Origin: Clostridia bacterium
GTDB lineage: Bacteria; Bacillota; Clostridia; Oscillospirales; CAG-272
Length of the DNA stretch: 64,000 bases
Direction of reading: 5' to 3'
Assembly: GCA_017631325.1 (NCBI GenBank)
Contig: JAGBTM010000045.1
Coordinates: forward strand, 6,037-70,036
Shown here: in pieces, positions 45,099-60,397 of the stretch
How positions within the stretch are numbered: the first letter of the stretch is position 1
Layout of the letters: each line of letters begins with the position of its first letter
Notes under the pieces: generated by a model
What the model was told of the DNA's origin: nothing
Databases searched by the model: none
The model's input: the letters and a program-made list of their open reading frames with translations, nothing else
Position numbers and translations under genes: made by a program

Positions 45099-46655
45099 TT
45101 ACTTTTCTTCAGTGTAAATAAGCTCGGGCTCGCCAAGGTAACGGCGCTTTTGCATCTGGGCGCCCTCCTTGAGCGTGAAGATAAATTCTGCTCCTACTCC
45201 GTCCGAGGACGTTGCCCATATTTTCTCACCGTGAGCCTCGACTATGGTCTTGGAAATGTAAAGTCCCAGTCCTACTCCACTCTTATCGAGTCCGCGGCTC
45301 TTATCGGTCTTGTAAAATCTGTCAAAGACGAGCTTGAGGTCCTCCTCGGAGATGGTCTGTCCCTCGTCGAATACCGAAACGCGAATTTTCTTTGGAGCCT
45401 CTCTCACAATTCTGATGGCGAATTTTCCGCCGTCGTGCGAGAACTTAATCGCGTTGTGGCAAAGGTTATAAAGCACCTGATAAATTGCGTCCTTGTCGGC
45501 GTTTACCGTCATTTCATCGGAGTCTGCCTCAAATTCAACCTCGAGGCGCTTTGCCTCTATCTTCTGCTCGAAGGAAATGAGAATAACTCTCGCCATCTCG
45601 GCAATATCGAAGTCGACGAAGTTGAATTTGCGCTCGCCCGACTCCAGCCTTGACACGTCGAGTATCTCGGAAACGAGGCGCGACAGACGGTGTATCTCCG
45701 ACTGGATTACGTTGAGATAATATCCGTGCTTTTCGGGTGGAATAGCGCCAGAGGTTATGCCGTCTATAAATCCCGAGACGGTTGTCATAGGTGTGCGCAG
45801 GTCGTGGGAAACGTTAGCTAAAAACGAGTTACGCATTTTCTCAAGGCTATCAAGCGACTCTGCCATATTGTTGAAGGCTCGGCCAAGCTCGGATACCTCG
45901 TCGTCGCCCGAGACCACAACGCGCGCTGAGAAATCACCCTTACCGAAGCTCTTGGCGGCGCCTGTCATCGTGCGAAGCGGGTGAACTATGCGCTCGGTGA
46001 TAAAGTACGCCGCTATTACTGCCGCGAGCATTACCCAAATCGAGCTGTTTATTACGGCCTGTCTTGCTATTGCAACAAGTCCGTCCTCTCTTGTGGTTGA
46101 GGAAAGAGTAAGCACGTATCCACGCACCTCACCCATAACCACGACGTCGTTTGCGTAGACGACGCACTGCTCGTCAAGAATACCGCCGAGCGTTCCCTTG
46201 TGAACATAGTTTACGTTCATATCATCGTCGGTCGTTTCGGTAAAATGCTTCTCGAAATTTACCACTCCAAAGCCGTCGTCAACGTCAAAAACGGGCTCCT
46301 TACTGCCGTCGGGGCCTATCGCTCCCTTTGCTACGGTGGACAGAAGTATTTTTCCCGTCGGGTCGGTTACCATAACGTCGAAGCTCTTGTCAAAATTAAC
46401 CATAGGCGTTATGACCTTAGAGAGCTGCTCGTGGTATATATAATTCGTTACGTTCTCTACGTTCTCGCGCTCTATATCCTTTACTATAACGTTTCCTGAA
46501 AGAGCAAGCTTCTCTTCCTTTTCCTCGAGAGCGTGTGTCTGTATCATTGACGTTATTATACCCGAAAGTATAAGAAAGCTCACGAGAATTATTATAACGA
46601 ACGCGGTAATGTATTTAGAAAAAGACGTCTTAAACAAAATATCACTCCTTTTCAT
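45099..46655 (-). CDS. sensor histidine kinase (2 TM, HAMP, HisKA, HATPase_c) with no adjacent response regulator
   Basis: 518 aa. H box SHDLRTPMT, and N, G1 and G2 boxes. Confidence 0.85.
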   Translation of the reverse strand: MKRSDILFKTSFSKYITAFVIIILVSFLILSGIITSMIQTHALEEKEEKLALSGNVIVKDIERENVENVTNYIYHEQLSKVITPMVNFDKSFDVMVTDPTGKILLSTVAKGAIGPDGSKEPVFDVDDGFGVVNFEKHFTETTDDDMNVNYVHKGTLGGILDEQCVVYANDVVVMGEVRGYVLTLSSTTREDGLVAIARQAVINSSIWVMLAAVIAAYFITERIVHPLRTMTGAAKSFGKGDFSARVVVSGDDEVSELGRAFNNMAESLDSLEKMRNSFLANVSHDLRTPMTTVSGFIDGITSGAIPPEKHGYYLNVIQSEIHRLSRLVSEILDVSRLESGERKFNFVDFDIAEMARVILISFEQKIEAKRLEVEFEADSDEMTVNADKDAIYQVLYNLCHNAIKFSHDGGKFAIRIVREAPKKIRVSVFDEGQTISEEDLKLVFDRFYKTDKSRGLDKSGVGLGLYISKTIVEAHGEKIWATSSDGVGAEFIFTLKEGAQMQKRRYLGEPELIYTEEK

Positions 46656-50879: not shown

Positions 50880-50908
50880 TTGAAAATCTTTTATGCGCGT
50901 GTTATAAT
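50880..50908 (+). promoter_or_regulatory. sigma-A type promoter of the hydrogenase cluster
   Basis: TTGAAA, 17 nt spacer with TGT (extended -10), TATAAT. Confidence 0.65.
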
Positions 50909-50921
50909 AATTGATGGCGAA

Positions 50922-50937
50922 TGTTAATATTTTCACA
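50922..50937 (+). promoter_or_regulatory. candidate Rex operator
   Basis: TGTTAAtattTTCACA compared with the Rex consensus TTGTGAAnnnnTTCACAA. It lies between the -10 element and the RBS of hydC. Confidence 0.45.
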
Positions 50938-50962
50938 TTCAATAGTTTCAGGAGGAAAAATT

Positions 50963-51460
50963 ATGCTGAAAAAGTTTTCAACTCTCCCCTTTGCCGGTAC
51001 GGCTGAGCAGGAGGCAAAGCTTAATGCAGTTATCAACGCAAACAAGCACGACAAGAGTCGTCTTATGGGCGTAATGCAGGAAGCACAAGAAATTTACGGT
51101 TATCTGCCCATTGAGGTGCAGTCCAAAATCGCTGAGGGTATGGATATTCCGCTCGAGAAGGTTTACGGAGTTTCCACCTTCTACGCTCAGTTCTCGCTGT
51201 CTCCCAAGGGTGAGTACAACATTTCTGTTTGTCTTGGTACTGCGTGCTACGTTAAGGGCTCGGGTGATATCTACAACAGACTTCAGGAAATTCTCGGCAT
51301 CGGTACCGACGAGTGTACCCCCGACAGAAAGTTCTCTCTCACCGCTTGCCGTTGCATCGGTGCTTGCGGTCTTGCTCCCGTTCTCACTGTCAACGAAGAT
51401 GTTTACGGACGTCTTGGAGTTGACGACGTTGACGGCATAGTAGCAAAATATAAAAACTAA
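50963..51460 (+). CDS. hydC: NuoE-like [2Fe-2S] subunit of a HydABC-type hydrogenase
   Basis: Thioredoxin-like 2Fe-2S pattern: C.GTACYVKG ... C.C.GACGLAP. Confidence 0.85.
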   Translation: MLKKFSTLPFAGTAEQEAKLNAVINANKHDKSRLMGVMQEAQEIYGYLPIEVQSKIAEGMDIPLEKVYGVSTFYAQFSLSPKGEYNISVCLGTACYVKGSGDIYNRLQEILGIGTDECTPDRKFSLTACRCIGACGLAPVLTVNEDVYGRLGVDDVDGIVAKYKN

Positions 51461-51495: not shown

Positions 51496-51849
51496 ATGAA
51501 AATCAATGAAATTCAGAAATTACTGGATGCCAAGCTCTACTGCGGAGAGGACGGTCTTTCCCGCGACGTAAAGTCGGTATGCGGCTCTGATCTCATGAGT
51601 GACGTGCTTGCCTACAATAAGGACCAGTCTATGCTTCTTACAGGGCTTGTTAATCCCCAGGTTATTCGTACTGCTGTAATGATGGATATGTTATGCATCG
51701 TTTTCGTGCGCTCGAAGACCCCGAGTGATGAGATGCTCGAGCTTGCTAAGGACAGCGGCATCGTGGTTATGGGAACAGATATGACTATGTTCACCGCGTG
51801 CGGCAAGCTTTACGCAGGCGGCATAGTAAACGATTTTCGCGTTAAATAA
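51496..51849 (+). CDS. DRTGG-domain protein
   Basis: 117 aa. GSDLMSDVL ... LLTGL ... the typical DRTGG-type small regulatory domain. Confidence 0.6.
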   Translation: MKINEIQKLLDAKLYCGEDGLSRDVKSVCGSDLMSDVLAYNKDQSMLLTGLVNPQVIRTAVMMDMLCIVFVRSKTPSDEMLELAKDSGIVVMGTDMTMFTACGKLYAGGIVNDFRVK

Positions 51850-52271
51850 TGAGCGAGGAATTGGTTTTCCGTTTTAAAGTTGACGGGGACGATTTTACGT
51901 CCGCCGGTCAAGCCTCCGTACAGGTTAAGAAAAATCTTCGCCAGCTGGGTCTGTCGGCAGAGGTTATAAAGCGAGTTTCGGTCGCTATGTACGAGGGAGA
52001 AATAAATATGGTCATTCACGCGGGCGGAGGCGACGCTGAGGTGCGTGTGAGTGAGGATTATATTGAAATTGTGCTTGATGACAAGGGGCCCGGTATCAAG
52101 AACATAGATCTTGCGATGCAGGAGGGCTATTCCACAGCGTCCGACACTATCCGTTCACTCGGATTTGGCGCGGGAATGGGTCTGCCTAACATGCGCAAGT
52201 ACACCGATTATATGGACATACAGTCCGAAATCGGTGTGGGCACCAAAATTGTAATGAGAGTAAATTGTTAG
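51849..52271 (+). CDS. GHKL ATPase / anti-sigma-factor-type Ser kinase-like protein
   Basis: 140 aa. E...N...H, DDKGPGI and GFGAGMGL boxes. TAATG overlap with the upstream gene. Confidence 0.7.
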   Translation: MSEELVFRFKVDGDDFTSAGQASVQVKKNLRQLGLSAEVIKRVSVAMYEGEINMVIHAGGGDAEVRVSEDYIEIVLDDKGPGIKNIDLAMQEGYSTASDTIRSLGFGAGMGLPNMRKYTDYMDIQSEIGVGTKIVMRVNC

Positions 52272-53564
52272 GTGAATGTAATGTATACTTACGAGCACTC
52301 AGTTCTTTTAGATGAGAGCAAGTGTACCGGATGTACGACATGTCTTAAGCATTGCCCGACAGAGGCAATCAGAATAAGAGACGGTCACGCAATCATCAAC
52401 CCTAATAGATGTATTGACTGCGGTGAATGCATCAGAGTCTGTCCGCACAAAGCGAAAAAAGCTGTATGCTCAAAGCTTCCAGACATGGACAGATTTAAGT
52501 GGAAGATTGCTCTTCCCGCCCCTACTCTGTACGGTCAGTTTGATAATCTTGACGATATTGATTACGTTCTCGACGGACTTTTAAAAATCGGCTTTGACGA
52601 CGTTTACGAGGTTGCAAAGGCAGCCGAGCTTGTCACGGCTTACACACGTATTCATCTAAAAGATGAAAACGTCAAAAAGCCTGCTATCAGTTCAGCCTGC
52701 CCCGTAGTGCTTCGACTGATAAGCCTGCGTTTTCCCTCTCTCGCGGACCACATTCTGCACATGCTTCCGCCTATGGAGGTTGCCGCAAGGCTTGCAAAGG
52801 AGAGGGCTCTTGCCGAGCACCCCGAGTTTAATAGCGAGGACGTTGGAGTTTGCTTTATATCTCCGTGTCCTGCCAAGGCGAGCTACGTCAAAAACGGCTT
52901 TGCCTCGTACAAGAGCTACGTTGACGAGGTCGTGTCCATCAGCGACATTTATTTTCTTCTCATTTCCAAGATGCGAAAGGACAAAAATATACGTCCTATT
53001 TCCGAATCGGGCAGAATCGGTCTCGGTTGGGCCAGAAGCGGCGGCGAGGCTACCGCTATTCTCAACGAGGACTATCTTGCAGCCGACGGTATAGTAAACG
53101 TTATTCACGTTCTCGACCAGATGGAAAACGACAATATGCCGCCTCTTGAATTTATCGAGCTTAACGCTTGTACCGGTGGCTGTGTCGGTGGCGTTCTGAC
53201 CATACAGAATCCCTTTATAGCAAAGGCGCGTCTTCAGACGCTTCGCAGATATTTACCCGTCTCGCACAACCAGATAGATAAATCCGAGATCTCTGTTCCC
53301 GAGAATTATCTATTCTCCGACCTACCCGAATATCAACCTATATCGCGTCTTAGCGACAGCCTCTCGGAATCTATGAAGATGATGGGTGAGATACATAGGA
53401 TACGAGATATTCTGCCGGGTATCGACTGTGGCTCGTGCGGCGCTCCAACCTGTCGCGCGTTTGCCGAGGATATTGTCAGGGGTACGTCCTGTATCGGCGA
53501 GTGTCCTATCAAGGCTATTGCCGAAATCCGTGAGCGCGGAGGCTTGTCTGATGACTGTAAATGA
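52272..53564 (+). CDS. [FeFe]-hydrogenase-like (HydS-like, putative sensory) protein with two ferredoxin-type clusters and a C-terminal RnfB-type Fe-S domain
   Basis: CTGCTTCLKHCP and CIDCGECIRVCP. H-domain motif equivalents are SSACPVV, ISPCPAKASY and ELNACTGGCVGG. C-terminal DCGSCGAPTCRAFAEDIV...C..EC. Confidence 0.7.
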   Translation: MNVMYTYEHSVLLDESKCTGCTTCLKHCPTEAIRIRDGHAIINPNRCIDCGECIRVCPHKAKKAVCSKLPDMDRFKWKIALPAPTLYGQFDNLDDIDYVLDGLLKIGFDDVYEVAKAAELVTAYTRIHLKDENVKKPAISSACPVVLRLISLRFPSLADHILHMLPPMEVAARLAKERALAEHPEFNSEDVGVCFISPCPAKASYVKNGFASYKSYVDEVVSISDIYFLLISKMRKDKNIRPISESGRIGLGWARSGGEATAILNEDYLAADGIVNVIHVLDQMENDNMPPLEFIELNACTGGCVGGVLTIQNPFIAKARLQTLRRYLPVSHNQIDKSEISVPENYLFSDLPEYQPISRLSDSLSESMKMMGEIHRIRDILPGIDCGSCGAPTCRAFAEDIVRGTSCIGECPIKAIAEIRERGGLSDDCK

Positions 53565-53877
53565 GCTTATTAGTACGGGTTATTTCAAGCCCGTCTCTCT
53601 TCCCTCTCCCAACAGAGAAATCGTCGGCGCATACGTTGGCGACCTTCTTAGCTGGGTAATGGGCAGAGCCGAGGCGGATAACGCTTGGATAACCATTATG
53701 AGCAACGTAAACGTTATTGCGGTTGCAACCCTTACCGACGTCAGTTGCGTTATACTTGCCGAGGGCGTAAGCCTTGACGGCGAGGTGCTTTCAGTAGCTC
53801 TCGAAAAGGGTGTAAACGTGCTTAGTTGTGAGCTGCCGTTATACGAGGCGGCTATAAAGCTCGGCGGTATGATATAA
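53551..53877 (+). CDS. DRTGG-domain protein (second copy)
   Basis: 108 aa from the ATG at 53551 (VGDLLSWVM ... VAVATL). Overlaps the upstream gene by 14 nt. Confidence 0.55.
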   Translation: MTVNELISTGYFKPVSLPSPNREIVGAYVGDLLSWVMGRAEADNAWITIMSNVNVIAVATLTDVSCVILAEGVSLDGEVLSVALEKGVNVLSCELPLYEAAIKLGGMI

Positions 53878-54611
53878 TGAAAAGGTTTTATTACGACCTG
53901 CACGTTCATTCATGTCTGTCGCCCTGCGGTGACATGGATAACACGCCTGCGAATATTGCGGGCATGGCGTCGCTATGCGAAGTTGATATAGTTGCTCTTA
54001 CAGACCACAATACGTCAAAGAACTGTCCTGCTTTTTTTGAGGCAGCGTCAAGATACGGCATAATTCCCGTTGCAGGAATGGAGCTGACGACCTCGGAGGA
54101 AATACACGTCGTATGTCTTTTTGAGACACTCGAGGACGCTCTTGACTTTGACGCTTACATAAGCACAAAACGTATTCTTATAAAAAATCGCGCGGATATT
54201 TTCGGCGAGCAGCTAATCCTTAACGGAAACGACGAGCCCATCGGCCAAGAGGAGCATCTTCTGACGGTGGCAACGACGGTTTCGATAGAGGACGTGCCGA
54301 GCCTTGTGGAAAAATACCGCGGCGTATGCTACCCTGCCCACATAGACCGTCAGAGCTACGGAATAGTTGCGGTGCTAGGTACGGTACCGAAAACTCCCCA
54401 CTTTCCGGCAGTTGAATTCAGCCGCGACGAGATTATTGAGGAGTATAGGCAAAAATACTGCATCGGTGATAAAATCACGGTTCGCTCCTCGGACGCTCAC
54501 ACGCTCGGCGATATACCCGACCGTCGATATTTCTTTGAGCTGCCCGTGGACAACTCCTCTCCAAGCGAGGTGCGTCGCGCCCTGATAAATCACCTTAGAG
54601 GTAAAAAATGA
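53877..54611 (+). CDS. PHP-domain phosphoesterase
   Basis: YDLHVHS..SPCG, ALTDHNT and an ..AH.D.. pattern. TAATG overlap with the upstream gene. Confidence 0.75.
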   Translation: MKRFYYDLHVHSCLSPCGDMDNTPANIAGMASLCEVDIVALTDHNTSKNCPAFFEAASRYGIIPVAGMELTTSEEIHVVCLFETLEDALDFDAYISTKRILIKNRADIFGEQLILNGNDEPIGQEEHLLTVATTVSIEDVPSLVEKYRGVCYPAHIDRQSYGIVAVLGTVPKTPHFPAVEFSRDEIIEEYRQKYCIGDKITVRSSDAHTLGDIPDRRYFFELPVDNSSPSEVRRALINHLRGKK

Positions 54612-55165
54612 AGGAGCTATCGCTGAATATTCTCGACGTTGCCGAAAATTCGGTAAAGGCCGGAGCCGACTTGACCGAGATAATCATTGACGAGACGGCA
54701 CAAGAGCTTACGTTGACTATAAGGGACAACGGCTGTGGCATGAGTGACGAGGTAGAAAGAGCTGTTACAAATCCGTTCTACACCACCCGCACGACAAGAA
54801 AGGTGGGACTTGGAGTTCCTCTTTTAAAGCTTGCGGCCGAGCAGTGCGGCGGCTCGCTGACGATAGAGTCAAAAACCTCGCTTGAAAGTCCCACGAAGCA
54901 CGGCACAACGCTTGTTGCGACATTCAACAAGGAGCATATTGATTTCACACCGCTGGGTGACGTCGTATCAACTATTCAAACTCTGATACAGGGACACCCC
55001 GAGATCGATTTTCTATTCGTTCACAGCATCGGCACAGAGCGGGTCACGCTAGATACAAGAGAGATGCGAGAGGTCCTCGGAGACCTTCCGCTTAACTCGT
55101 ACGAGGTTATCCTCTGGGTACGCGAGGCGCTTTTGGAGCAGTACGCACAAATCGGCAAATCATAG
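54608..55165 (+). CDS. GHKL-type ATPase (histidine-kinase-like ATPase domain only)
   Basis: NILDVAENSV.AGA (N box), RDNGCGM (G1) and GLGVPLL (G2). No H box or HisKA domain. ATGA overlap with the upstream gene. Confidence 0.7.
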   Translation: MKELSLNILDVAENSVKAGADLTEIIIDETAQELTLTIRDNGCGMSDEVERAVTNPFYTTRTTRKVGLGVPLLKLAAEQCGGSLTIESKTSLESPTKHGTTLVATFNKEHIDFTPLGDVVSTIQTLIQGHPEIDFLFVHSIGTERVTLDTREMREVLGDLPLNSYEVILWVREALLEQYAQIGKS

Positions 55166-55182
55166 GGCGAAATTTTGTAGCT

Positions 55183-55242
55183 CGTATATTTTACCGTTCG
55201 TATTTTACCGTTCGCATATTTTAACGTTCATAATTTTCGTTC
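55183..55242 (+). repeat. four tandem 13-17 bp repeats (TATTTTACCGTTC core) upstream of hydD-hydB-hydA
   Basis: cgtatattttaccgttc / gtattttaccgttc / gcatattttaacgttc / ataattttcgttc. Confidence 0.8.
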
Positions 55243-55287
55243 ATATTTAAATAAATATAAAATGTAGCAAAAGGAAAGGAAAAGACT

Positions 55288-55656
55288 ATGAAATCTTTGG
55301 CTGAACTTAAAGCAATCAAAGACAGAATGAAGGACAAGGTTGTTCTTCGTGAGGGTACGGGCAACGTTCGTGTTGTCGTAGGTATGGCTACCTGCGGTAT
55401 TGCGGCCGGCGCGCGTCCCGTTCTCAACGCTTTCGTTGAGGCAGTAAACAAAGAGGGCCTTACCGACAAGGTCACCGTTACTCAGACAGGCTGTGTAGGA
55501 CTTTGCCAGCTTGAGCCCCTCGTTGAAATCTACGAGGCAGGCAAGGAAAAGGTTACCTACATCAAAATGACTGCAGAAAAGGCGCAGACCGTTGTTGAAA
55601 AGCACCTTAAAGGCGGCAATATAGTAACCGAGTTTACGGTTGCTGAGGCTAAGTAA
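55288..55656 (+). CDS. thioredoxin-like [2Fe-2S] ferredoxin (HydD-like small subunit)
   Basis: 122 aa. Cys pattern: C.IAAGA ... TGCVGLC. Confidence 0.75.
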   Translation: MKSLAELKAIKDRMKDKVVLREGTGNVRVVVGMATCGIAAGARPVLNAFVEAVNKEGLTDKVTVTQTGCVGLCQLEPLVEIYEAGKEKVTYIKMTAEKAQTVVEKHLKGGNIVTEFTVAEAK

Positions 55657-55673: not shown

Positions 55674-57494
55674 ATGATTCGTACACATGTTCTGGTTTGT
55701 GGCGGTACAGGCTGTACCTCCTCAGGCAGTCAGGCAGTTCAGGCGGCCTTCACCGAGAATATCGAGGCTTACGGCCTTAGCGAAGAGGTTAAGCTCGTTC
55801 AGACGGGTTGCTTCGGTCTTTGCGCACTCGGTCCTGTCGTTATTATCTATCCCGAGGGCACCTTTTACAGCCGTGTAACCCCCGAGGACGTAAAGGAAAT
55901 CGTTGAGGAGCATCTTCTCAAGGGTAGAATTGTTGAGCGTCTCGTTTACGCTGACACCGGTGCTGAGGAAATAGTTGACAAAGCAAGCGTTTCCCTTGGT
56001 GATACCGCATTCTACAAGACCCAGAAGCGTATAGTTCTTCGTAACTGCGGTGTTATCGACCCCGACAGCATCGATGAGTATATTGCTATGGACGGCTACG
56101 CAGCGCTCGGTAAGGTTCTCACCGAGATGACTCCCGAGGACGTTATCAAGGTAGTTACAGATTCCGGTCTTCGCGGCAGAGGAGGCGGCGGCTTCCCCAC
56201 CGGACGCAAGTGGGCTCTCTGTGCACCTAACAAGGCGCCTCAGAAGTACGTAGTATGTAACGCCGACGAGGGCGACCCCGGTGCTTTCATGGACCGTTCT
56301 ATTCTCGAGGGTGACCCCCACTCCATTATCGAGGCTATGACCATCTGCGGTTACGCTATCGGCGCAACCAAGGGCTACGTTTACGTAAGAGCCGAGTATC
56401 CTATCGCAGTAAGACGTCTTCAGAAGGCTATCGACGACGCTAACGCATACGGCCTTCTCGGCAAGAACATATTCAACTCGGGCTTTGATTTCGACCTTGA
56501 AATCAGACTTGGCGCAGGCGCATTCGTCTGCGGTGAGGAAACCGCTCTTATGACCTCTATCGAGGGTAACCGCGGTGAGCCCAGACCCCGTCCTCCCTAT
56601 CCTGCAGTAAAGGGACTTTACAACTCTCCCACCGTTGAAAACAACGTTGAGACCTTTGCTAATATTCCCCAGATTATACTTAACGGCGTTGAATGGTTCA
56701 CCTCTATGGGTACCGAAAAATCCAAGGGTACTAAGGTATTCGCACTCGGCGGTAAGATTGAGCACACGGGTCTTGTTGAAATTCCTATGGGTACTACCCT
56801 TCGTGAGATTGTTTATGACATCGGTGGCGGTATTCCCGACGGAAAGCAGTTCAAGGCGGCTCAGACCGGAGGTCCTTCCGGCGGTTGTATCCCTGCAAGC
56901 CTTATCGACACAGAGGTTGACTACGATAACCTCACTGCTATCGGCTGTATGATGGGCTCGGGTGGTCTTATCGTCATGGACGAGGACACCTGTATGGTTG
57001 ATATGGCTAAGTTCTTCCTTGAGTTCACGGTTGACGAGTCCTGTGGTAAGTGTACTCCCTGCCGCGTAGGTACTAAGCGTCTTCTTGAGCTTCTTGATAA
57101 GATTACCGACGGTAAGGGAACGCTTGAGGATATAGACAAGCTTGAAAACCTTTGTAACTATATCAAGGCTAACTCGCTTTGCGGTCTTGGACAGACGGCT
57201 CCTAACCCCGTGCTTGCAACTCTAAAGTTCTTCCGCGAGGAGTATATCGCTCACGTTGTGGACAAGAAGTGCCCTGCCGGCGTATGTAAGAACCTTCTTT
57301 CCTTCACCATTGACAAGGACAAGTGTATCGGCTGTGGCAAGTGCGCTAAGAACTGCCCTGTTGATACTATCGTCAAGACCGATTACGTTGCTCCCGGACA
57401 CAAGCTTGCTTCTTACTCTATCGAGCAGGCTAAGTGCATTAAGTGCGGCGCTTGTATGAGCGGCTGTAAGTTCGGCGCAATAATCAAGAAGTAA
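55674..57494 (+). CDS. hydB: NuoF-like FMN/NAD(H)-binding subunit of the bifurcating hydrogenase
   Basis: GRGGGGFPTG.KW, CNADEGDPGAF, ESCGKCTPCR and two C-terminal ferredoxin motifs. Confidence 0.9.
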   Translation: MIRTHVLVCGGTGCTSSGSQAVQAAFTENIEAYGLSEEVKLVQTGCFGLCALGPVVIIYPEGTFYSRVTPEDVKEIVEEHLLKGRIVERLVYADTGAEEIVDKASVSLGDTAFYKTQKRIVLRNCGVIDPDSIDEYIAMDGYAALGKVLTEMTPEDVIKVVTDSGLRGRGGGGFPTGRKWALCAPNKAPQKYVVCNADEGDPGAFMDRSILEGDPHSIIEAMTICGYAIGATKGYVYVRAEYPIAVRRLQKAIDDANAYGLLGKNIFNSGFDFDLEIRLGAGAFVCGEETALMTSIEGNRGEPRPRPPYPAVKGLYNSPTVENNVETFANIPQIILNGVEWFTSMGTEKSKGTKVFALGGKIEHTGLVEIPMGTTLREIVYDIGGGIPDGKQFKAAQTGGPSGGCIPASLIDTEVDYDNLTAIGCMMGSGGLIVMDEDTCMVDMAKFFLEFTVDESCGKCTPCRVGTKRLLELLDKITDGKGTLEDIDKLENLCNYIKANSLCGLGQTAPNPVLATLKFFREEYIAHVVDKKCPAGVCKNLLSFTIDKDKCIGCGKCAKNCPVDTIVKTDYVAPGHKLASYSIEQAKCIKCGACMSGCKFGAIIKK

Positions 57495-57512: not shown

Positions 57513-59264
57513 ATGGAAATGTTAAACGTAACAGTTAACGGTATCGCAGTTAGCGTACCTAAGGGCTCCACTATTCTGGAAGCTGCCCGCGCTGCAGGTG
57601 TGGAAATTCCCACTCTCTGCTTTATGAAAGAAAAGAACGAGATCGGCGCTTGCCGTATCTGCGTTGTTGAGGCTACCGGCGCAAGAGGTCTTGTTACCGC
57701 CTGCGTATACCCTGTAACCGAGGGTATGGAAATCAAAACCAACACTGACAAGGTAAGAGAGGCAAGACGCACTACTCTTGAGCTTATCCTCTCTACTCAC
57801 GATAAGAGCTGTCTTTCCTGCTCTCGCTCTACCAACTGCGAGCTTCAGAAGCTCTGCCTTGAGTACGGTGTAGACGACAAGGCGTTCGACGGCTTCAAGC
57901 CCACCTATGAGCTTGACTACTCTACTCCTCACCTCGTAAGAGATAACAACAAGTGCGTTCTCTGCCGTAGATGCGTTGCAGTTTGCCAGGAGCAGCACGT
58001 TGCAGTTATCGGCGCAAACAACAGAGGTATCGACACCTGCATCGGTCAGGCGTTTGATCTTCCCCTTGCCGAGACACCCTGTATCTCCTGCGGTCAGTGT
58101 ACTGCCGTATGTCCTACCGGCGCTCTCGTTGAGCGTGACGATACCGACAAGGTATGGGCAGCTCTCGCTGACCCCACAAAGCACGTAGTAGTTCAGACTG
58201 CTCCCTCTATCAGAGCAACTCTCGGTGAGTGCTTCGATATGCCTATCGGCACTAACGTTGAGGGCAAGATGGTTGCAGCTCTCAGAAGACTTGGCTTCGA
58301 GAAGGTATTCGACACCAACACCGCGGCTGACTTTACTATCGTAGAGGAAGCAACCGAGCTTCTTGAGAGAGTTAAGAATGGCGGCACTCTCCCCATGATT
58401 ACCTCCTGCTCGCCCGGTTGGGTTAAGTTCTGCGAGTACTACTATCCCGATATGATTAACCACCTCTCCTCCTGCAAGTCTCCTCAGCAGATGGGCGGCG
58501 CTCTCATCAAGTCCTACTGGGCTGATAAGATGGGCTATGATCCCAAGGACGTATTCGTAGTTTCGATTATGCCCTGTACTGCTAAGAAGTTCGAGGTAGG
58601 AAGAGACGATATGTGTGGCGCAGGCGAGGGTATCGTTGACGTTGACGTAGCTCTCACCACACGTGAGCTTGCTAAGATGATAGGCAGAGCGGGAATTAAG
58701 TTCACCTCTCTTCCCGACGAGGAGTTTGACACAGCTCTCGGCATCGACACCGGCGCTGCAGTTATCTTCGGCGCAACCGGAGGCGTTATGGAGGCGGCTC
58801 TCAGAACCGCAAACGACGTTCTCACCGGTAAGGACAACAAGAAGCTCGATTTCACCGAGGTACGCGGTACCGAGGGTCTCAAGGAGGCTACCTACAATAT
58901 TGCAGGTTTGGAAATCAAGGTTTGCGTTGCTTCCGGCGCAAAGAATGCAAAGGTCGTTATGGACAAGATTGCAAAGGGCGAGGCAGACTGGACCTTCGTT
59001 GAGATTATGGGTTGCCCCGGCGGTTGCGTAAACGGTGGCGGTCAGCCTATCCAGCCTCAGTACGTAAGAGACACCGTTGACCTCAAGTCCGTGCGCGCAA
59101 AGGCTCTCTACGACCAGGACGCTAAGATGGAAATGAGAAAATCTCACCAGAACCCCATCATTAAGGAAGTTTACGACAACTACTTCAAGGGTGGCTACGG
59201 CTGTCACAAGGCTCACCATCTTCTCCACACCTCTTACGTTGCGCGTAAGAAGTACAATATTTGA
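57513..59264 (+). CDS. hydA: [FeFe] hydrogenase catalytic subunit (HydA, multi-cluster M3-type N-terminus)
   Basis: N-terminal 2Fe-2S and 4Fe-4S Cys motifs. H-cluster motifs read TSCSPGW, MPCTAKKFE and EIMGCPGGCVNGGGQP. Confidence 0.9.
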   Translation: MEMLNVTVNGIAVSVPKGSTILEAARAAGVEIPTLCFMKEKNEIGACRICVVEATGARGLVTACVYPVTEGMEIKTNTDKVREARRTTLELILSTHDKSCLSCSRSTNCELQKLCLEYGVDDKAFDGFKPTYELDYSTPHLVRDNNKCVLCRRCVAVCQEQHVAVIGANNRGIDTCIGQAFDLPLAETPCISCGQCTAVCPTGALVERDDTDKVWAALADPTKHVVVQTAPSIRATLGECFDMPIGTNVEGKMVAALRRLGFEKVFDTNTAADFTIVEEATELLERVKNGGTLPMITSCSPGWVKFCEYYYPDMINHLSSCKSPQQMGGALIKSYWADKMGYDPKDVFVVSIMPCTAKKFEVGRDDMCGAGEGIVDVDVALTTRELAKMIGRAGIKFTSLPDEEFDTALGIDTGAAVIFGATGGVMEAALRTANDVLTGKDNKKLDFTEVRGTEGLKEATYNIAGLEIKVCVASGAKNAKVVMDKIAKGEADWTFVEIMGCPGGCVNGGGQPIQPQYVRDTVDLKSVRAKALYDQDAKMEMRKSHQNPIIKEVYDNYFKGGYGCHKAHHLLHTSYVARKKYNI

Positions 59265-59350: not shown

Positions 59351-59495
59351 TATTTTAGGTAGTATTAAGTCGATTTAACTACTTACTATTTTAGGTAGTA
59401 TTAAGTCGATTTAACTACTTAATATTTCGGGTAGGATTTAACAGAATTTAAGTACTTAATATTCTAGATAGAATTAAGAGGATTTAACCACTCCC
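59351..59495. repeat. four tandem ~36 bp repeats decaying toward, and including, the 3' end of the radical SAM gene
   Basis: Units at 59351-86 and 59387-422 are identical except for the last base. Units at 59423-59 and 59460-95 become progressively degenerate. The last covers the final codons and stop at 59474. Confidence 0.85.
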
Positions 59496-60397
59496 GTACC
59501 GTCAAACGCGGGTACGTAGCTATCTGTTGCTGAGGCGCTATCCTGAATAAAGGCGTGTGTTACGCCAATTTTATCGGCATATTCCACAAGCTCGCGATAT
59601 TCTTCTCTGGTCACCTTGCGTGATAGCGGCTTTGCCATATCGGGCATCGGGGTATACTGCGACATAAGGCTCAGGTAAATATCATCACCGTACCTTTCGT
59701 AGAGATATTTGACGGTCAGCTTCGCCTCGGCTACATGAGATGGCAAAAGAAGAATTCTAACAACAACTCCACGACGGATAGTACCGTCCTCACCAATAGC
59801 GGCCTTGCCCGTCTGAGAAACCATCTCATCTATGATTTCTCTTATATTCTCGGGATATTTCGGGGCAGACGCGTATTTCTCGGCTGTTTTTGAGGTATAG
59901 AATTTGAAGTCGGGAAGATAAACGTCTACTGTACCCGAGAGTGAGCGAACAGTTTTGAAAGTATCATAGCCACCCGTATTATAAACTATCGGCAGAGTCA
60001 GTCCCCTCTCTTTTGCGAGAGAGGTGGCTTCCTTTACCGAGGGGGCGTAGTGTGTAGGTGTAACGAAATTAATATTATGTGCACCGCTATCTTGAAGCTC
60101 CAACATAATTTCGCAAAGGCGATGGACGTCAACCTTTGCTCCAAACGGACCTCGTGATATTTCCCTGTTCTGACAAAAAGCGCAACCGAGCGAGCAGCCG
60201 GAAAAGAATATAGTTCCCGAACCGCGAGTGCCGGATATAATAGGCTCCTCCCATAAATGAAGCGCGGCTCGCGCAATATAAATATCGCTTGGCATTTTGC
60301 AAAAACCGACACTTTTTTCTCTGTCAGCTTTACATTCTCTTTTACAAAGAGTGCATTTTCTGTAAATATCCTTACTCACCGTTGCTCCTTTCTTCAT
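59474..60397 (-). CDS. radical SAM protein (PflX / activating-enzyme-like)
   Basis: CSLGCAFCQN (CxxxCxxC) preceded by an N-terminal Cys cluster. 307 aa. Confidence 0.8.
   Translation of the reverse strand: MKKGATVSKDIYRKCTLCKRECKADREKSVGFCKMPSDIYIARAALHLWEEPIISGTRGSGTIFFSGCSLGCAFCQNREISRGPFGAKVDVHRLCEIMLELQDSGAHNINFVTPTHYAPSVKEATSLAKERGLTLPIVYNTGGYDTFKTVRSLSGTVDVYLPDFKFYTSKTAEKYASAPKYPENIREIIDEMVSQTGKAAIGEDGTIRRGVVVRILLLPSHVAEAKLTVKYLYERYGDDIYLSLMSQYTPMPDMAKPLSRKVTREEYRELVEYADKIGVTHAFIQDSASATDSYVPAFDGTGVVKSS

Follow-up and report, generated by a model that had tools for sequence, protein, structure and literature searches.

Putative sensory [FeFe] hydrogenases of the M2e or group D type, encoded next to bifurcating hydrogenases with 'histidine/serine kinases' between the two, have been in the literature since 2010-2012, and histidine-kinase-linked sensory [FeFe] hydrogenases are listed in HydDB. 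The group was defined by Land et al. 2020 (PMC8163306), with TamHydS as its representative, a protein that combines low turnover with high H2 affinity, CO tolerance and reversible H+/H2 interconversion, and whose gene lies upstream of a bifurcating HydABC hydrogenase and beside a 'histidine kinase-like ATPase' (PMC8163306). How group C and group D enzymes transmit the H2 signal is an acknowledged open question, and the 2026 paper on TamHydS (PMC13104023) closes by asking that interaction partners be identified. Here we describe a 64,000-nucleotide (nt) stretch of DNA from a Clostridia bacterium, referred to as the window, in which a HydS of this kind is encoded together with two DRTGG proteins, two GHKL ATPases and a PHP phosphoesterase. 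Most likely, the six form the canonical set of accessory genes that goes with a group D (M2e), putatively H2-sensing HydS, and are cotranscribed with the genes of a HydABC(D) hydrogenase.

Three described hydrogenase systems can be compared with this locus besides TamHydS. The group C (M2f) systems, namely TmHydS, R. albus HydS and the hfsABCD system of T. saccharolyticum, also contain a HydS of sensory type whose C-terminal domain is of the [4Fe-4S] kind and, like the module of the window, are tied to GHKL-type Ser/Thr kinases, to phosphatases and to the control of hydrogenase and fermentation. However, group C uses fused PAS domains and PP2C/SpoIIE phosphatases, whereas our module has separate (sometimes fused) DRTGG proteins and a PHP-type phosphoesterase. 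In Caldanaerobacter, where HydA-D co-purify, so that HydD counts among the subunits of the enzyme, the gene Tte0891 stands directly upstream of hydD in an operon for an NADH-dependent [FeFe] hydrogenase. Its product was described there only as a 'hypothetical protein'; judged by its position and domains, the gene can be likened to the sixth of our module, GHKL2, and the window adds a five-gene HydS set between hydC and GHKL2. The HoxBC-HoxJ/HoxA [NiFe] system of Ralstonia eutropha shares the logic of a slow hydrogenase of high H2 affinity that serves as H2 sensor and controls a GHKL-type kinase, but HoxBC has an unrelated metal centre, HoxJ combines PAS with an entire histidine kinase, and HoxA is a DNA-binding response regulator, domains that the module of the window does not have.

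The HydS of the window (52272-53564, + strand) follows the plan of TamHydS, with two N-terminal [4Fe-4S] motifs, the H-domain and a C-terminal Cx2Cx4Cx16C motif: Pfam recognizes two Fer4 domains, Fe_hyd_lg_C and a C-terminal FeS domain, and gives no PAS match. The cysteines of the N-terminal clusters (C15, C18, C21, C25, C44, C47, C50 and C54) and of the H-cluster (C140, C196, C297 and C301) are invariant in comparisons with 25-91 homologues, and so are the four that make up the C-terminal motif (C383, C386, C391 and C408). Motif L1 reads ISSACP, with Ala at the position of the proton-relay Cys (C299 of CpI), and L2 reads FISPCPAK, with Ser at the position of Met353; TamHydS likewise lacks the relay Cys and has Ser for Met353. 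Since all of these features fit the definition of Land et al. 2020, HydS is by its sequence hallmarks a group D / M2e putative sensory [FeFe] hydrogenase of the TamHydS type, and the preliminary description of this DNA, which had called it a sensory-type homologue, was right in this respect. The two proteins and their surroundings also differ. TamHydS has been characterised experimentally whereas the HydS of the window is known from sequence alone; hydC stands ahead of the module in the window and after the PHP gene in Thermoanaerobacter-type loci (published locus-tag spans, L083/L084); and the DRTGG genes, the PHP gene and partner proteins are not described in the published TamHydS work. The family is large, with more than 8000 90%-identity clusters among the matches listed; clustering at 50% identity gives 401 clusters at E <= 1e-30.

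The module lies within a run of ten genes, all on the + strand, between 50963 and 59264. The run opens with hydC (50963-51460), encoding a NuoE-like [2Fe-2S] subunit (Pfam 2Fe-2S_thioredx, 160 bits), whose ATG at 50963 is preceded by an AGGAGG ribosome-binding site. It closes with hydD (55288-55656), whose product has a thioredoxin-like ferredoxin fold, the NuoF-like hydB (55674-57494) and hydA (57513-59264), which matches NCBIfam NF040763, 'NADH-dependent [FeFe] hydrogenase, group A6', at 870 bits (cut-off 765). The HydABC architecture is complete in Pfam and NCBIfam searches, HydA having the Fer2/NuoG-like N-terminus and HydB and HydC being NuoF-like and NuoE-like; as judged from this architecture, hydD-hydB-hydA and hydC are the genes of an NADH/ferredoxin-dependent, bifurcating-type [FeFe] hydrogenase. 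HydD keeps three conserved Cys only (in the motifs MATCG and QTGCxGxC) versus four in thioredoxin-like [2Fe-2S] ferredoxins, and it has a conserved N-terminal KSLAxL motif.

Between hydC and hydD stand, in this order, DRTGG1 (51496-51849; 117 amino acids (aa), single-domain; Pfam DRTGG, 28.6 bits, cut-off 25.2), GHKL1 (51849-52271; 140 aa; Pfam HATPase_c_2 and HATPase_c), HydS, DRTGG2 (53551-53877; 108 aa; Pfam DRTGG, 22.4 bits, slightly below the cut-off), the PHP phosphoesterase (53877-54611; 244 aa, catalytic core only; Pfam PHP) and GHKL2 (54608-55165; 185 aa; Pfam HATPase_c). The five junctions from DRTGG1 to GHKL2 measure -1, 0, -14, -1 and -4 nt; the zero gap between GHKL1 and HydS needs a GTG start at 52272, and with the ATG at 52281, as in the database copy P0001 (427 aa), it becomes a 9-nt gap. 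DNA-binding, receiver and HisKA domains were sought in the six module proteins with Pfam and NCBIfam, and none was detected. The preliminary description thus had the six open reading frames (ORFs), their strand and order, their domains (Pfam, NCBIfam and profile searches) and the absence of these three kinds of domain correct, and its list of overlaps and one abutment was recovered, the abutment depending on the GTG start. The candidate of an internal promoter or terminator dividing the operon was rejected, as a scan for both gave no strong consensus site; in view of this, the ten genes are most simply read as one operon.

The conservation of this arrangement was evaluated in two sets of loci. 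The first came from a genome scan with a 25-sequence HydS alignment as query, whose matches were all Oscillospirales, and comprises 80 species-level genomes of Oscillospirales/Acutalibacteraceae/Ruminococcaceae with HydS 56-80% identical; as far as the contigs reach, their order is hydC-DRTGG1-GHKL1-HydS-DRTGG2-PHP-GHKL2-hydD-hydB-hydA. The second was gathered in another scan, whose query was a HydS clade just ~31% identical to the HydS of the window, and comprises Bacteroidota-type loci, with Mangrovibacterium diazotrophicum, Sunxiuqinia sp. and metagenome-assembled genomes of Bacteroidales among the carriers; here the order is DRTGG1-GHKL1-HydS-DRTGG2-PHP-GHKL2-hydD-hydB-hydA-hydC. Counting only loci with room for all six genes, 61 of 62 Oscillospirales loci and 37 of 40 Bacteroidota-type metagenome loci keep the order unbroken, so the arrangement is conserved far beyond chance. 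For Clostridia and Bacteroidota, this answers positively the question of co-conservation with HydABC that the preliminary description had raised as a check. In Petroclostridium and other Clostridia we found DRTGG-GHKL1-HydS-DRTGG-PHP followed by hydC-(GHKL2)-hydD-hydB-hydA, and the locus tags published for Thermoanaerobacter imply the same order.

The place of hydC thus depends on the lineage: it opens the operon in Oscillospirales, stands between PHP and GHKL2 in other Clostridia and closes the operon in Bacteroidota. The conserved core consists of the module together with hydD-hydB-hydA; since only hydC moves while the rest stays constant, no 'island' has been inserted into the operon, contrary to how the locus was first described. 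In all three arrangements GHKL2 is directly upstream of hydD, and one Clostridiales lineage (L081/82) has no GHKL2. Across the lineages the recurrent core is GHKL1, HydS, DRTGG2, hydD and usually GHKL2. Concerning the Bacteroidota, 30-33 loci of this type carry, divergently oriented upstream of DRTGG1, a PAS protein (~310 aa) and a SpoIIE-type PP2C phosphatase (~395 aa), which links the module to Ser/Thr phospho-signalling; these loci thereby share the kinds of component found in group C systems, encoded as divergent upstream genes. The loci with this pair are among L085-L164, a further example lies at L165:5794-7904 (- strand), and the pair is absent from the clade of the window. Two variant loci can be added as single observations. 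At L084:10579-14593, where HydS is labelled Petroclostridium, a 4.4-kb sugar-catabolism cassette (DeoR, FBP aldolase, PfkB, DUF4432) splits the module between HydS and DRTGG2, and in a metagenomic locus, L157:230-8866, HydS-DRTGG-PHP-GHKL2 is duplicated in tandem.

Tight or overlapping junctions recur in both the Oscillospirales and the Bacteroidota sets, with overlaps of -1, -4 and -14 nt. The longest, the 14-nt overlap of HydS and DRTGG2, ATGNNNNNNNNTGA at 53551-53564, recurs in 71 loci of Bacillota and Bacteroidota (for example L119-L163). In it the GGAG Shine-Dalgarno sequence for DRTGG2 is encoded by the last HydS codons, and the HydS stop codon sits within codons 4-5 of DRTGG2. Judged by these junctions, the six genes are tightly coupled in translation in both Bacillota and Bacteroidota. 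Relative to HydS, DRTGG2 occupies the +1 frame, and a frameshift would recreate a HydS::DRTGG fusion that is also found in nature.

Such fusions were sought with Pfam among those representatives of the 50%-identity HydS clusters that are longer than usual. HydS::DRTGG proteins were found in five separate clusters (P0134, P0151, P0245, P0261 and P0204), DRTGG::HydS proteins in two (P0139 and P0179) and a GHKL1::HydS protein in one (P0147), the last as several distinct near-identical sequences from independent assemblies. Most of the fusions are represented by several distinct sequences from independent assemblies, and one recurrent fusion comes from the record 'bacterium 210820-DFI.6.37'; P0245 and P0179 are single-member clusters. 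This recurrence indicates that the fusions are not assembly artefacts. In its genomic context HydS::DRTGG is followed by PHP-GHKL2-hydD-hydB, and its DRTGG domain sits C-terminal of the [4Fe-4S] domain, that is, at the position taken by PAS in group C sensors. Because they are recurrently fused to HydS in nature, DRTGG and GHKL1 are nominated as candidate physical partners of HydS.

Three loci with fusions deserve a separate description. In L168, GHKL1::HydS is followed by a DRTGG2-sized gene, hydC, GHKL2, hydD, hydB and hydA, with neither DRTGG1 nor PHP; its HydB (L168:11928-14960) is a 1010-aa fusion of NuoF-like and GltD-like (Pyr_redox_2) parts, which suggests a different pyridine-nucleotide module. 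L170, a HydS::DRTGG locus, has no DRTGG1. Downstream of its hydB (L170:13603-17327) lie a 418-aa protein with no Pfam match and a membrane protein with a faint Nitrate_red_gam match, and the place of hydA is also occupied by a CCG-domain Fe-S protein, which recalls DsrMK/Hdr-type modules, and a cytochrome c3-like gene. In L169 (GCA_020558355.1, 'bacterium 210820-DFI.6.37') the order is GHKL1-DRTGG-PHP-GHKL2-DRTGG::HydS-hydD-like, and hydB and hydA are not adjacent; this permuted module (L169:5941-9955) is located between a V-type ATPase operon and glycogen genes.

Against PDB the family profile of GHKL1 aligns with the anti-sigma F factor SpoIIAB (E 1e-11) over residues 20-137, nearly full length, and with RsbW (3e-5), histidine kinases being much weaker, and the N (YExExN..H), G1 (DxGPGI) and G2 (GFGAGMG) boxes are invariant. 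By its profile GHKL1 is thus a SpoIIAB/RsbW-class GHKL ATPase and a putative Ser kinase or switch protein; its best NCBIfam family is spIIAB (TIGR01925), at 58.8 bits, far below the equivalog cut-off of 135. With the SpoIIAA-SpoIIAB-SpoIIE and RsbV-RsbW-RsbU modules our locus has more in common than a small GHKL protein of one class whose ATP-binding motifs are intact, as there, too, a small partner gene is directly upstream and coupled and a phosphoesterase gene is nearby. However, the window has no STAS, sigma factor or PP2C component, the small partner has the DRTGG fold, and the third gene encodes a hydrogenase homologue. Neither a STAS nor a sigma-factor gene was found in the window or in ~165 related loci.

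That small partner, DRTGG1, carries the conserved motifs SDxMSDVL and TGLxNxQxIRTAEMxD, and its profile matches the DRTGG domain of the CBS-pyrophosphatase 3l2b. DRTGG2 aligns with the DRTGG1 family at 99.7% and E 4.5e-27 (hhalign), which makes the two proteins, as far as profiles can tell, clear paralogues; the DRTGG domain of CBS-pyrophosphatase, like the N-terminal domain of HPr kinase, is related to both. We found nothing relevant in the literature on DRTGG or PHP together with a hydrogenase.

In the PHP protein, D7, H9, H11, D43, H44, E69, H77, H155, D206 and H208 are invariant, as is C17. H9, H11, H44, E69, H77, H155, D206 and H208 supply the HxH motif and, further downstream, the E/H/H/DxH ligands expected of PHP phosphoesterases, and the metal site is predicted to be intact. 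The whole of its profile can be aligned to the catalytic PHP domain of endonuclease Q from P. furiosus (EndoQ; E 2e-16) and also to TrpH-like phosphoesterases. It is not itself an endonuclease Q: the protein has 244 aa versus ~400 aa and aligns to EndoQ residues 5-231 only, and whereas EndoQ joins to its PHP core a Zn-finger and a C-terminal helical DNA-binding domain, the PHP of the window has no DNA-binding domains.

GHKL2 is of a different type. Its profile matches the CA domain of KinB in PDB (1.7e-14) over residues ~3-108 only, with conserved N, G1, F and G2 boxes, and the remaining tail of ~75 aa, which finds no PDB match, has conserved H110, D112, PLGD and H139. A single-sequence AlphaFold2 model of the protein reached a pLDDT of 39.6, too low to be of use. 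Of the elements of a two-component system only the CA domain is present, while a HisKA/DHp domain with a phospho-accepting His and a response regulator are missing, and by its profile GHKL2 is a stand-alone histidine-kinase-type CA domain with a conserved tail. A 518-aa ORF (45099-46655, - strand) also matches the GHKL2 profile weakly; it is probably an ordinary sensor histidine kinase, lies 4 kb upstream, past gltX and rpsT, and has no counterpart kept beside the operons of relatives.

Taken as a whole, this is very probably a sensory or regulatory HydS module whose direct partners include DRTGG2 and GHKL1. As for what it does, the model that we tentatively prefer, and hold to be a little short of probable, is an H2-responsive, ATP-dependent switch, similar to partner switching, that acts on proteins and not on DNA. 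HydS would bind H2 and shift its conformation; DRTGG2 would dock where group C has PAS, against the C-terminal [4Fe-4S] domain, and act as transducer; and on the N-terminal side of HydS, GHKL1 and its upstream partner DRTGG1 would form an ATP-dependent switch analogous to SpoIIAB/SpoIIAA, with DRTGG in the role of STAS. PHP would reset the switch by hydrolysing a phospho-ester, and GHKL2 would pass the state to HydD and thence to the HydABCD enzyme. In this way the module would adjust the activity or the assembly of the hydrogenase to the prevailing H2 pressure by acting on protein, and the NADH/NAD+ input would be handled transcriptionally by Rex at the promoter. Post-translational tuning of HydABC, as the preliminary description had suggested, is a reasonable inference, and its statement that no mechanism has been worked out agrees with the call for interaction partners in the TamHydS paper of 2026. 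Its implied novelty, however, did not hold: the association of M2e/group D proteins with bifurcating hydrogenases and kinases was already in the literature and the kinase-linked type is listed in HydDB, so this locus is an ordinary member of a widespread and previously noticed operon type. What is new here are the partner candidates from fusions, the conserved core with its floating hydC, the 14-nt overlap and module conserved in two phyla, and the invariant adjacency of GHKL2 and hydD.

Several points weigh against our model. The conserved Ser of DRTGG, considered as a specific phospho-acceptor, was rejected as evidence, its motif being probably general to the DRTGG family. No protein phosphatase is among the PDB entries matched by the PHP profile at E <= 1, and PHP appears closest to nucleic-acid and nucleotide phosphoesterases (EndoQ, TrpH). 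DRTGG1, PHP or GHKL2 is gone from some lineages (L081/82, L168, L170), which means that the module can do without some of its six genes. Co-purification with HydABCD was not reported for Tte0891, and any contact of GHKL2 with the enzyme would thus be transient. The C-terminal cluster of TamHydS does not respond to H2 (PMC13104023), and in group C systems deleting the sensor alters transcript levels. The roles of the five accessory proteins in phosphorylation, ATPase activity, binding and phenotype are all predicted. We hold it possible, but on the whole doubtful, that the module is a hitherto undescribed H2-responsive type of partner switching in which DRTGG stands for STAS/PAS and PHP for PP2C, the sensory hydrogenase has a SpoIIAB-like GHKL wired directly to it, and an electron-bifurcating hydrogenase is controlled post-translationally, via GHKL2 and HydD, with no transcription factor.

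The preliminary description had also argued that the signal output cannot follow a classical two-component or Rex-only logic. The part concerning two-component domains stands, but the logic of anti-sigma factors and partner switching was overlooked: since GHKL1 is SpoIIAB/RsbW-like, the output may instead be transcriptional, through a factor encoded elsewhere. GHKL1 would then sequester that factor as an anti-sigma or anti-regulator protein, DRTGG1 and DRTGG2 would be anti-anti-factors, and HydS would pick the partner of GHKL1, so that H2 would control the transcription of fermentation and hydrogenase genes and not the activity of the enzyme. The closest solved relatives of GHKL1, SpoIIAB and RsbW, are anti-sigma factors and spIIAB is its best NCBIfam family; the order of small partner, kinase and target mimics the generally known spoIIAA-spoIIAB-sigF; deletions in the group C system hfsABCD alter adhE transcript levels; and the module of L169 is not beside hydB/hydA. 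Nevertheless we consider this explanation unlikely. Over ~165 loci, neither the module nor its flanks have a conserved sigma factor, STAS protein or DNA-binding protein, the spIIAB score of GHKL1 remains at 58.8 bits against a cut-off of 135, the GHKL1::HydS fusion suggests a permanent complex over partner exchange, and the promoter of the operon in the window is of the ordinary sigma-70 type.

A second explanation starts from the affinities of DRTGG and PHP described above. DRTGG would bind a small ligand (an adenine nucleotide, NADH or similar), PHP would degrade a nucleotide signal, the two GHKL proteins would be ATP-sensing clamps and HydS would give the redox or H2 input, so that the module would integrate energy charge with H2. 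DRTGG-like domains do occur in the regulatory parts of CBS-pyrophosphatases and of HPr kinase, and PHP aligns best with phosphodiesterase and nucleotidase types (EndoQ, TrpH-like, 5'-3' exoribonuclease), its NCBIfam matches including 3',5'-nucleoside bisphosphate phosphatase and RNase RNM. However, the module contains no cyclase or synthetase for a second messenger, ligand binding by DRTGG itself is not an established function, PHP has no EndoQ DNA-binding domains and it is missing from some otherwise complete modules (L168), and we regard metabolite sensing as quite improbable. That the module does not signal at all, HydS being a low-activity catalytic or electron-input subunit or the whole an ATP-dependent device for assembly, protection or repair of HydABC, is in our opinion very unlikely, for although TamHydS does catalyse H+/H2 interconversion (PMC8163306), the genes are translationally coupled within the structural operon and GHKL ATPases are generally known to include chaperones such as Hsp90, active HydABC(D) has been purified and heterologously produced without the module proteins (literature), HydS has no proton-transfer residues and turnover is slow (TamHydS, PMC8163306), and the GHKL proteins of the window are of the kinase/anti-sigma and not of the Hsp90/MutL type.

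Concerning transcription of the operon, the region 50880-50938 (+ strand) holds its probable promoter and a Rex-like box, found by promoter scan and consensus match. The promoter, TTGAAA-17-TATAAT with an upstream TG (50880-50908), is of the sigma-70 type and matches at 11 of 12 positions; just downstream of the -10 box lies the Rex-like inverted repeat ATGTTAATATTTTCACAT (50921-50938), which has 2-3 mismatches to the Rex consensus and is not significant alone. Rex regulons that cover hydrogenase genes have been described in the literature. We found boxes with at most two mismatches upstream of 17 of 68 Oscillospirales and 19 of 64 Bacteroidota-type operons, versus 18 of 680 control segments unmatched in composition; this enrichment among relatives (~25-30% versus ~3% of the composition-unmatched controls) is only suggestive of control by Rex.

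The spacer between GHKL2 and hydD (55166-55287, + strand) is unusually long in the window, at 122 nt versus ~20-50 nt (median ~33 nt) in relatives, and contains 3-5 tandem copies of a 14-16-nt unit, ATTTTACCGTTCG. The spacers of relatives hold a ribosome-binding site only, and the repeats are not conserved. An RNA element in this spacer was considered and rejected, as there is no Rfam match, the fold is no better than that of shuffled sequences (z +1.4) and the region is unconserved. Directly downstream of hydA, in convergent orientation, lies a gene for a 307-aa radical-SAM protein (59474-60397, - strand), which matches Radical_SAM and Fer4_12 only and is not obviously a HydE/HydG maturase.

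The module is very common, being nearly universal in Oscillospirales of the rumen and gut and present in Bacteroidota, and the hydrogenase that it accompanies is the principal H2-evolving enzyme of those fermenters that supply methanogens. The comparison presented here provides candidate partners that can be tested, DRTGG2 and GHKL1 from the fusions and GHKL2-HydD from adjacency, together with a minimal core of GHKL1, HydS, DRTGG2, GHKL2 and HydD. If the post-translational mechanism is true, it would represent a new way to govern electron bifurcation, and it could offer a means of influencing how much H2 and methane is released, or how much biofuel is obtained.

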